From assembly GCF_030384885.1 (NCBI RefSeq), contig NZ_CP128613.1: 64,000 nucleotides of DNA; one strand, given 5' to 3'. A model generated the notes under the pieces. The model worked only from the letters and a program-made list of their open reading frames with translations, was not told the origin of the DNA and did no database searches. Within the stretch, counting starts at the first letter, position 1. The number at the start of each line of letters is the position of its first letter. Positions 5,207 to 5,356 of the stretch are shown here, one piece after another. This DNA is from Escherichia coli (GTDB taxonomy: Bacteria; Pseudomonadota; Gammaproteobacteria; Enterobacterales; Enterobacteriaceae). Made by a program: the position numbers and the translations under genes.

Positions 5207-5356
5207 ATGTTTATTGCCTGGTACTGGATTGTATTAATTGTTCTACTAGCTGGTGGCTATTTTCTTCATCTTAAACGTTACTGTAAAGCTTTTCGTCATG
5301 ACAGAGATGCGCTGTTAGCTGCCCAAAGTAAATTAGATAACCGCTCTGATAAATAA
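5207..5356 (+). CDS. Candidate small membrane protein, 49 aa (MFIAWYWIVLIVLLAGGYFLHLKRYCKAFRHDRDALLAAQSKLDNRSDK)
   Basis: ATG preceded by a purine-rich RBS (gaaggtgaaaagg); hydrophobic N-terminal helix and basic C-terminus; followed by a strong hairpin. Below the 60-aa cutoff of the ORF track. Coordinates read by eye, +/-2. Confidence 0.4.
   Translation: MFIAWYWIVLIVLLAGGYFLHLKRYCKAFRHDRDALLAAQSKLDNRSDK

Follow-up and report, generated by a model that had tools for sequence, protein, structure and literature searches.

Single-helix regulators of the Escherichia coli inner membrane, such as MgrB, AcrZ, MgtS, CydX and KdpF, bind a larger membrane protein. Another group of short hydrophobic peptides, encoded in intergenic regions as YqiD is, comprises the type I toxins Hok, Ibs, TisB and Ldr. 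YqiD of E. coli K-12 MG1655 (MFIAWYWIVLIALVVVGYFLHLKRYCRAFRQDRDALLEARNKYLNSTREETAEKVE) is the product of gene yqiD (b4756, 171 nt, 56 aa; YP_009518818.1, UniProt YQID_ECOLI), which is located between ribB and zupT, in convergent orientation to the latter. VanOrsdel et al. (2018; PMC6001520) attached SPA tags to the chromosomal 3' ends of 80 candidate sORFs and saw 36 of the proteins by immunoblot. K-12 YqiD (3183381-3183551, between zupT and ribB, 56 aa) is among the proteins detected in this way, the tagged product accumulating from its native locus in cells growing in rich medium, and it had earlier been visible in tetracycline-inhibited ribosome profiling (PMC6001520). In E. coli 042, a gene described as “Orf3334, DUF4051 family” was followed by RNA-seq and qRT-PCR and is one of three genes raised in an aar mutant (PMC5570504). 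Orf3334 is probably the same gene, in the allele class described below, because UniRef labels the 042-type protein DUF4051. A 2025 preprint places yqiD among the genes with isolate-to-isolate variation in expression and with cis non-coding variants. The literature search found no paper assigning a function to YqiD.

The window analyzed here, a 64,000-nt stretch of E. coli DNA, carries at 5207..5356 (+) an ORF that, judged from its sequence and those of its relatives, is very probably a real gene and a slightly shortened copy of yqiD. The finding is ordinary in that yqiD is already annotated, named in K-12 and has published expression data. Its residual value lies less in discovery than in an upstream palindrome, in a divergent allele linked to a fimbrial island and in a gap in annotation naming.

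The yqiD reading frame of the window

The ORF begins with ATG at 5207, ends with TAA at 5354-5356 and codes for 49 residues. The product read from the window is identical to the sequence given in the original prediction, so that both coordinates and sequence are confirmed. A Shine-Dalgarno sequence, GAAGGTG (5194..5200, +), is read directly 6 nt before the start codon. Its AAGGTG portion (5195-5200) corresponds to the purine-rich ribosome binding site that had been described, and the counterpart TAAGGGT is kept at all orthologous loci. An in-frame TTG at 5192 would give a protein of 54 aa; as this frame is lost in K-12 through a 1-nt indel, ATG 5207 is taken as the start. Note that 55 ORFs of at least 30 aa overlap positions 3000-8000. 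The length of the ORF is thus, by itself, no better than chance, and the significance of the 49-aa frame comes from its conservation rather than from its length.

The region 4700-5500 of the window matches E. coli 2013C-4282 (NZ_CP027579.1) at 100%, and over 11.5 kb only two positions differ between the window and that record. PGAP annotates in 2013C-4282 a CDS at the exact coordinates of the ORF (WP_000469269.1, “hypothetical protein”). The earlier description of the ORF as unlisted does not hold given this identical CDS in a near-identical RefSeq genome, and the expectation that it would be missed by length-based annotation is wrong for current pipelines, PGAP having called it.

Its identification as a yqiD ortholog with a truncated 49-aa allele (5207..5356, +) draws on this CDS, on the K-12 ortholog and on pN/pS ratios. 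The window protein and K-12 YqiD are identical at 31 of 37 positions over residues 1-37, and the representative of the K-12-type cluster (P0043) matches the 56-aa allele of the window's class with E = 5.8e-15. The exact 49-aa protein is named “DUF4051 domain-containing protein” by sources. Scans of Pfam-A and NCBIfam returned no DUF4051 model, even for K-12 YqiD, the model seemingly being absent from these libraries; membership in the YqiD family, formerly Pfam DUF4051, is based on direct homology and on the names given by the sources. Searches of Pfam, NCBIfam, PADLOC and PDB gave no significant match. Sub-threshold matches to MerE, DUF2621, DUF4381 and “HYxxLL” (Pfam/NCBIfam/PADLOC) were set aside as compositional, being typical of a transmembrane segment followed by a charged helix. 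The UPF0335 helices met in the PDB profile search are marginal only (E of at least 0.03), and that search found no solved complex containing a YqiD relative.

Conservation, allele classes and truncation

A degenerate DNA pattern for MFIAWYWIV finds the gene in 18 species-representative genomes (many Citrobacter, Escherichia, and Intestinirhabdus alba). Conservation and the balance between synonymous and nonsynonymous change, the check proposed with the original prediction, both speak for the ORF. All 18 species representatives have an intact frame of 56-58 codons preceded by the TAAGGGT Shine-Dalgarno sequence, and every frame is intact among the 23 unique ORF sequences. The pN/pS ratio, summed over all pairs, is 0.10 for codons 1-37, 0.11 for codons 1-42 and 0.37 for codons 38-49, while variable columns are distributed 15/13/37 over the three codon positions. 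By these sequence comparisons, purifying selection on codons 1-42 is strong.

Searched with a profile, 1.84 billion representative proteins gave 21 matches. Homologs with 40-55% identity occur in unclassified Enterobacter, Kosakonia cowanii, Phytobacter massiliensis and Atlantibacter, and the order ribB -> yqiD <- zupT holds in distant homologs wherever the context is given (Kosakonia, Phytobacter). One metagenomic homolog (L028) adjoins ygiC, without zupT or ygiD beside it. Neither the exact-pattern genome scan nor the profile search found copies in Salmonella or Klebsiella, two genera that possess zupT. Residues M1, W5, A28 and R30 are invariant throughout the family and I3, W7, R24, R33 and A35 are nearly so. 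In Citrobacter, YqiD has C20-H21-x4-C26 at the membrane interface; neither His21 nor Cys26 is conserved among the homologs from Kosakonia, Phytobacter and Enterobacter. Protein length ranges from about 49 to 74 aa across the family and the tail sequence is not conserved. E. coli genomes carry yqiD at a median of one place, and the window copy occupies the orthologous position, downstream of ribB and convergent with zupT, with a fimbrial operon intervening in the window lineage.

A sensitive search with positions 5150-5430 finds matches in 5425 of 5426 complete E. coli genomes. Close relatives at an identity of at least 95% are present in 991 genomes, including the window's own, while in 4431 genomes the match is limited to the first 165 nt at ~81%, the listed records falling on “yqiD: protein YqiD”. 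In DNA, the first 111 nt are 79% identical to the K-12 allele, the tail 54% and the 120 nt before the gene 80%; farther upstream the two sequences are unrelated (44%, which is the background level). In contrast, zupT and ygiD, which flank the locus, have 95-96% identity between the window and K-12. Synonymous sites are saturated between the two allele classes (21/28). One protein (P0017) is chimeric, its amino-terminal half being of window type and its tail of K-12 type. The divergence and the chimera suggest that the polymorphism is old or that an allele was imported, with recombination afterwards. The K-12 and window proteins share the start context, the first 11 residues and a predicted architecture of transmembrane plus basic helix. 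They differ in length (56 versus 49 aa, the cause being a nonsense change), in the upstream neighbor (ribB in K-12, a fimbrial operon in the window) and in their PGAP names (“protein YqiD” versus “hypothetical protein”). The label “hypothetical protein” that PGAP gives to the divergent allele in ~990 complete genomes is a naming gap and not a biological difference.

The protein WP_001296421.1 (56 aa; strains 042, PMV-1 and TUM14697; “DUF4051 domain-containing protein” in UniRef) belongs to the window's class, with ~96% DNA identity. It is identical to the window protein over residues 1-39 and its gene also has the fimbrial operon as neighbor. Compared with it, the window allele has two substitutions, R40Q and K45N, and ends in a stop at codon 50 (GAA->TAA). 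Alignment with 042 and K-12 places the premature TAA (5354-5356) and the seven former codons CTA TTT GAA AAG CAT CAA TAA that follow it at 5354..5377 (+); the ancestral stop is still recognizable at 5375-5377 and the window protein loses the last 7 residues. Of the 5426 complete E. coli genomes, 1 has the exact 3' end of the window allele. A large collection contains the exact 49-aa protein on 572 contigs and a second 49-aa form, built on the 042-type tail, on 79 contigs. The truncation persists and may have arisen more than once. Because the sequence and length of the tail vary freely across the family, the truncation is probably tolerated, and loss of the 7 residues would probably not entail loss of function. 

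Flanking regions of yqiD

The 160 nt preceding the ATG were aligned for 23 loci. A conserved upstream module, promoter and/or 5' UTR, is delimited at 5085..5206 (+) from the 80% identity to K-12 over 120 nt before the ATG. Its blocks, TTTTAAYG..TAAATGTTT and ATGTTAAAT, run down to the Shine-Dalgarno sequence, and ATGTTAAAT may be a TG-extended -10 element. The promoter-like sequence TTCACA-18-TATATT at 5112-5141 is not conserved in Citrobacter and was rejected. The module starts close to the 16-bp palindrome TATGATCGAAATCATA (5089..5104, 103-118 nt upstream of the ATG), which contains GATC and is presumed to be a regulator binding site. It occurs once in the window. In all 23 loci from Escherichia, Citrobacter and Intestinirhabdus the palindrome, TATGATC(G/A)AAATCATA, is identical bar one loop base, while its flanks vary. 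At the Kosakonia and Phytobacter loci it is missing, and CTACTTATAAAGTGGTAG is common to them instead. The position of the palindrome coincides exactly with the start of homology between lineages; this location at the edge of the homology block assigns it to yqiD and not to ribB or to the fimbrial or assT operons, which are the upstream neighbors in different genomes. No searchable paper contains its sequence. In spacing or in key bases, the palindrome does not fit CRP, FNR, Fur or NikR sites, nor does the upstream direct repeat TGTTTA-N4-TGTTAA fit PhoP or ArcA boxes, and no regulator is assigned to them. The gene yqiD is very probably monocistronic, with its own upstream control region of ~120 nt. 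There is a small chance that YqiD and the palindrome TATGATCNAAATCATA form a regulated module, in which a transcription factor would switch on a membrane peptide by which ZupT or some other envelope protein is tuned, the fimbrial-island allele being an adaptive swap in B2/D-type E. coli. The invariant palindrome offers in any case a handle for finding the regulator of yqiD.

A four-gene chaperone-usher fimbrial operon (window 1-4625, -) lies between ribB and yqiD, as it does in the four genomes of the window class that were inspected by their annotation (2013C-4282, 042, TUM14697 and PMV-1). Its major subunit appears to resemble K-12 YgiL. K-12 and the L032 locus have a homologous ygiL-type operon on the other side of ubiK-ribB, where 2013C-4282 has none, as if related fimbrial operons had two alternative locations. 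Position 3129, inside the usher gene (1453..3975), is A in the window and G in NZ_CP027579.1, a difference that changes CAG to an in-frame TAG (3127-3129, -); RefSeq annotates the usher of NZ_CP027579.1 as an intact 840-aa protein. In the window sequence the usher would be inactivated, and with it probably the fimbria. Only one further difference is present in the 11.5 kb, at 6687 in ygiD (C versus G). In Citrobacter rodentium and C. amalonaticus the aryl-sulfate sulfotransferase genes assT-dsbL-dsbI occupy the ribB-yqiD interval, and in E. coli 042, PMV-1, TUM14697 and L032 the ygiD-ygiC interval; they are absent from the window strain and from K-12. The ribB-yqiD/ygiD-ygiC neighborhood is a hotspot of insertion. 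Farther away, two genuine type I toxin genes, of the Ibs family, are annotated between hldE and yqiK (NZ_CP027579.1 4303620-4304056, L034), ~10 kb upstream of the window start, and make an instructive contrast to yqiD.

On the other side, yqiD faces zupT (5439..6212, -; PGAP annotation), its convergent neighbor, which codes for a divalent metal transporter of the ZIP family. A stem-loop at 5389..5436 separates the two genes and is probably a bidirectional terminator. Its core stem has 13 bp (5394-5406/5415-5427; 12 Watson-Crick pairs and one G-U), extended by an outer stem of 5 bp (5389-5393/5432-5436). It folds with a free energy of -25.7 kcal/mol (z = -5.5), a value reached by none of 200 shuffled sequences. 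A simple consensus terminator scan did not call the hairpin, a clean T-run being missing on both sides. It begins 33 nt past the yqiD stop and ends 2 nt from the zupT stop, so that it is shared by the two genes. The terminator hairpin assigned earlier to the ORF is therefore present, although its core has 13 bp instead of the 11 bp reported, it stands 33 nt after the stop and it is shared with zupT. K-12 keeps the stem with a compensatory T-A to A-T change and one extra pair. The hairpin is found in 16 of the 23 loci, and the other 7 have 15-28 nt between the stops and no hairpin. K-12, Citrobacter, Kosakonia and Phytobacter share this yqiD/zupT arrangement. In Phytobacter massiliensis (L031), yqiD (3501-3725) and zupT (3708-4481) overlap by 18 nt. 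With stops 15-28 nt apart and no hairpin, or with an 18-nt overlap, the convergent transcripts must overlap in some genera.

The predicted protein and its possible roles

YqiD of the window features a hydrophobic segment (mean Kyte-Doolittle hydropathy of 2.16 for residues 2-20) and a charged remainder. There is no K/R or D/E before residue 23, and 8 K/R and 4 D/E follow. With the ortholog alignment as input, AlphaFold2 models the protein as a single uninterrupted helix; pLDDT is 87-89 over residues 1-20 and 52-72 in the rest. The stretch from residue 22 to residue 39 is of moderate amphipathicity (muH 0.42; 0.55 in K-12). The predicted organization is a transmembrane helix (residues 2-21), a conserved basic juxtamembrane motif LKRYCKAFRHDRDALL (residues 22-37) and a variable tail (residues 38-49). 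The single transmembrane helix followed by a basic tail that had been predicted is thus found again, with hydropathy, charges and AlphaFold2 in agreement. Applying the positive-inside rule to the charge distribution, the predicted topology is N-out/C-in. YqiD would be a small bitopic protein of the inner membrane with a periplasmic amino terminus capped by the aromatic MFIAWYW. Its transmembrane helix would be followed by a cytoplasmic basic, moderately amphipathic helix, (K/R)R-x3-A-x-R-x(D/E)R(D/E)A, and then by the poorly conserved tail. The conserved helix would bind a larger membrane protein. By analogy with other small membrane proteins, binding of such a partner through this helix is the most likely mode of action of YqiD.

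The ORF had been proposed to code for a small membrane protein or for a peptide resembling a type I toxin. The first part stands, since the product is a YqiD ortholog with a hydrophobic helix and a basic carboxyl-terminal part, while single copy and fixed synteny count against the second. A type I toxin is a membrane-damaging hydrophobic peptide that is normally silenced by an antisense RNA, and it is very unlikely that yqiD codes for one. The size of ~50 aa and the one transmembrane helix with a charged tail are Hok-like, a promoter-like match in antisense orientation is present inside the ORF (5287->5259, 9 of 12 positions), and convergent transcription from zupT could yield an antisense RNA where the terminator is missing. 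That antisense match is, however, weak, with a -35 element that is not conserved in K-12, and promoter-like sites are at chance level (7 found versus 5.6 expected). The region has no Rfam match: the scan of 4600-5500 (E <= 1) gave only two chance matches, to a viral pseudoknot and to a nematode snoRNA. An antisense RNA antitoxin was thus not detected, though formally an uncatalogued new RNA may be present. PADLOC gave no match either. The gene is single-copy in E. coli and its syntenic position is fixed across genera, unlike that of mobile or duplicated toxin loci; its distribution is not patchy, multi-copy or mobile. The K-12 protein is moreover detectable from its native locus in growing cells (PMC6001520). 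It is also unlikely, to a lesser degree, that the nonsense mutation marks a non-functional yqiD remnant in the window strain. The codon-50 stop, accompanied by R40Q and K45N relative to the 56-aa allele, and the occurrence of this 3' end in only 1 of 5426 complete genomes would be consistent with relaxed selection or decay. Yet the 7 residues that are gone are the least conserved ones, at the end of a tail that varies in both length and sequence, and the core residues 1-37 are intact, as are the Shine-Dalgarno sequence and the upstream module. The presence of the 49-aa protein on 572 contigs and of the second 49-aa variant on 79 also argues against a remnant.

The constant neighborhood of zupT invites two further readings. 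It is conceivable, with a low probability, that YqiD is an accessory factor that modulates ZupT or senses metal through His21 and Cys26. The convergent adjacency kept from Escherichia to Kosakonia and Phytobacter, with the 18-nt overlap in the latter, and the Citrobacter C20-H21-x4-C26 at the membrane interface are in line with this. Nevertheless, the genes are convergent and not co-transcribed, and their adjacency may reflect vertical inheritance of a ribB-zupT-ygiD block. The L028 homolog has no neighboring zupT, and no yqiD of Salmonella or Klebsiella was found by the exact-pattern scan or the profile search. His21 and Cys26 as a metal site were set aside, since both residues vary in the distant homologs of Kosakonia, Phytobacter and Enterobacter. 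Adjacency is the only pointer to a YqiD-ZupT link. Alternatively, convergent yqiD transcription could modulate the 3' end of the zupT mRNA or its expression, the peptide being secondary. The transcripts would overlap in the 7 of 23 loci that lack the hairpin and in Phytobacter. However, a pN/pS of 0.11 together with saturated synonymous sites shows that the protein itself is selected, and the strong hairpin of Escherichia would part the two transcripts; a role mainly at the RNA level is very unlikely.

A membrane peptide that acts through a larger partner is the working model proposed for YqiD. The conserved core (MFIAWYW, the transmembrane helix and the RxAxRxDRDA helix) and the tail that looks dispensable should aid the design of functional experiments. 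Compared with Hok, Ibs, TisB and Ldr, YqiD differs in that no antitoxin RNA was detected for it and in that its gene is single-copy and stably syntenic and the protein is tolerated at native level (PMC6001520). Compared with MgrB, AcrZ, MgtS, CydX and KdpF, it has no sequence relationship and yqiD is not in an operon with a candidate partner, while its size and single transmembrane helix are like theirs.
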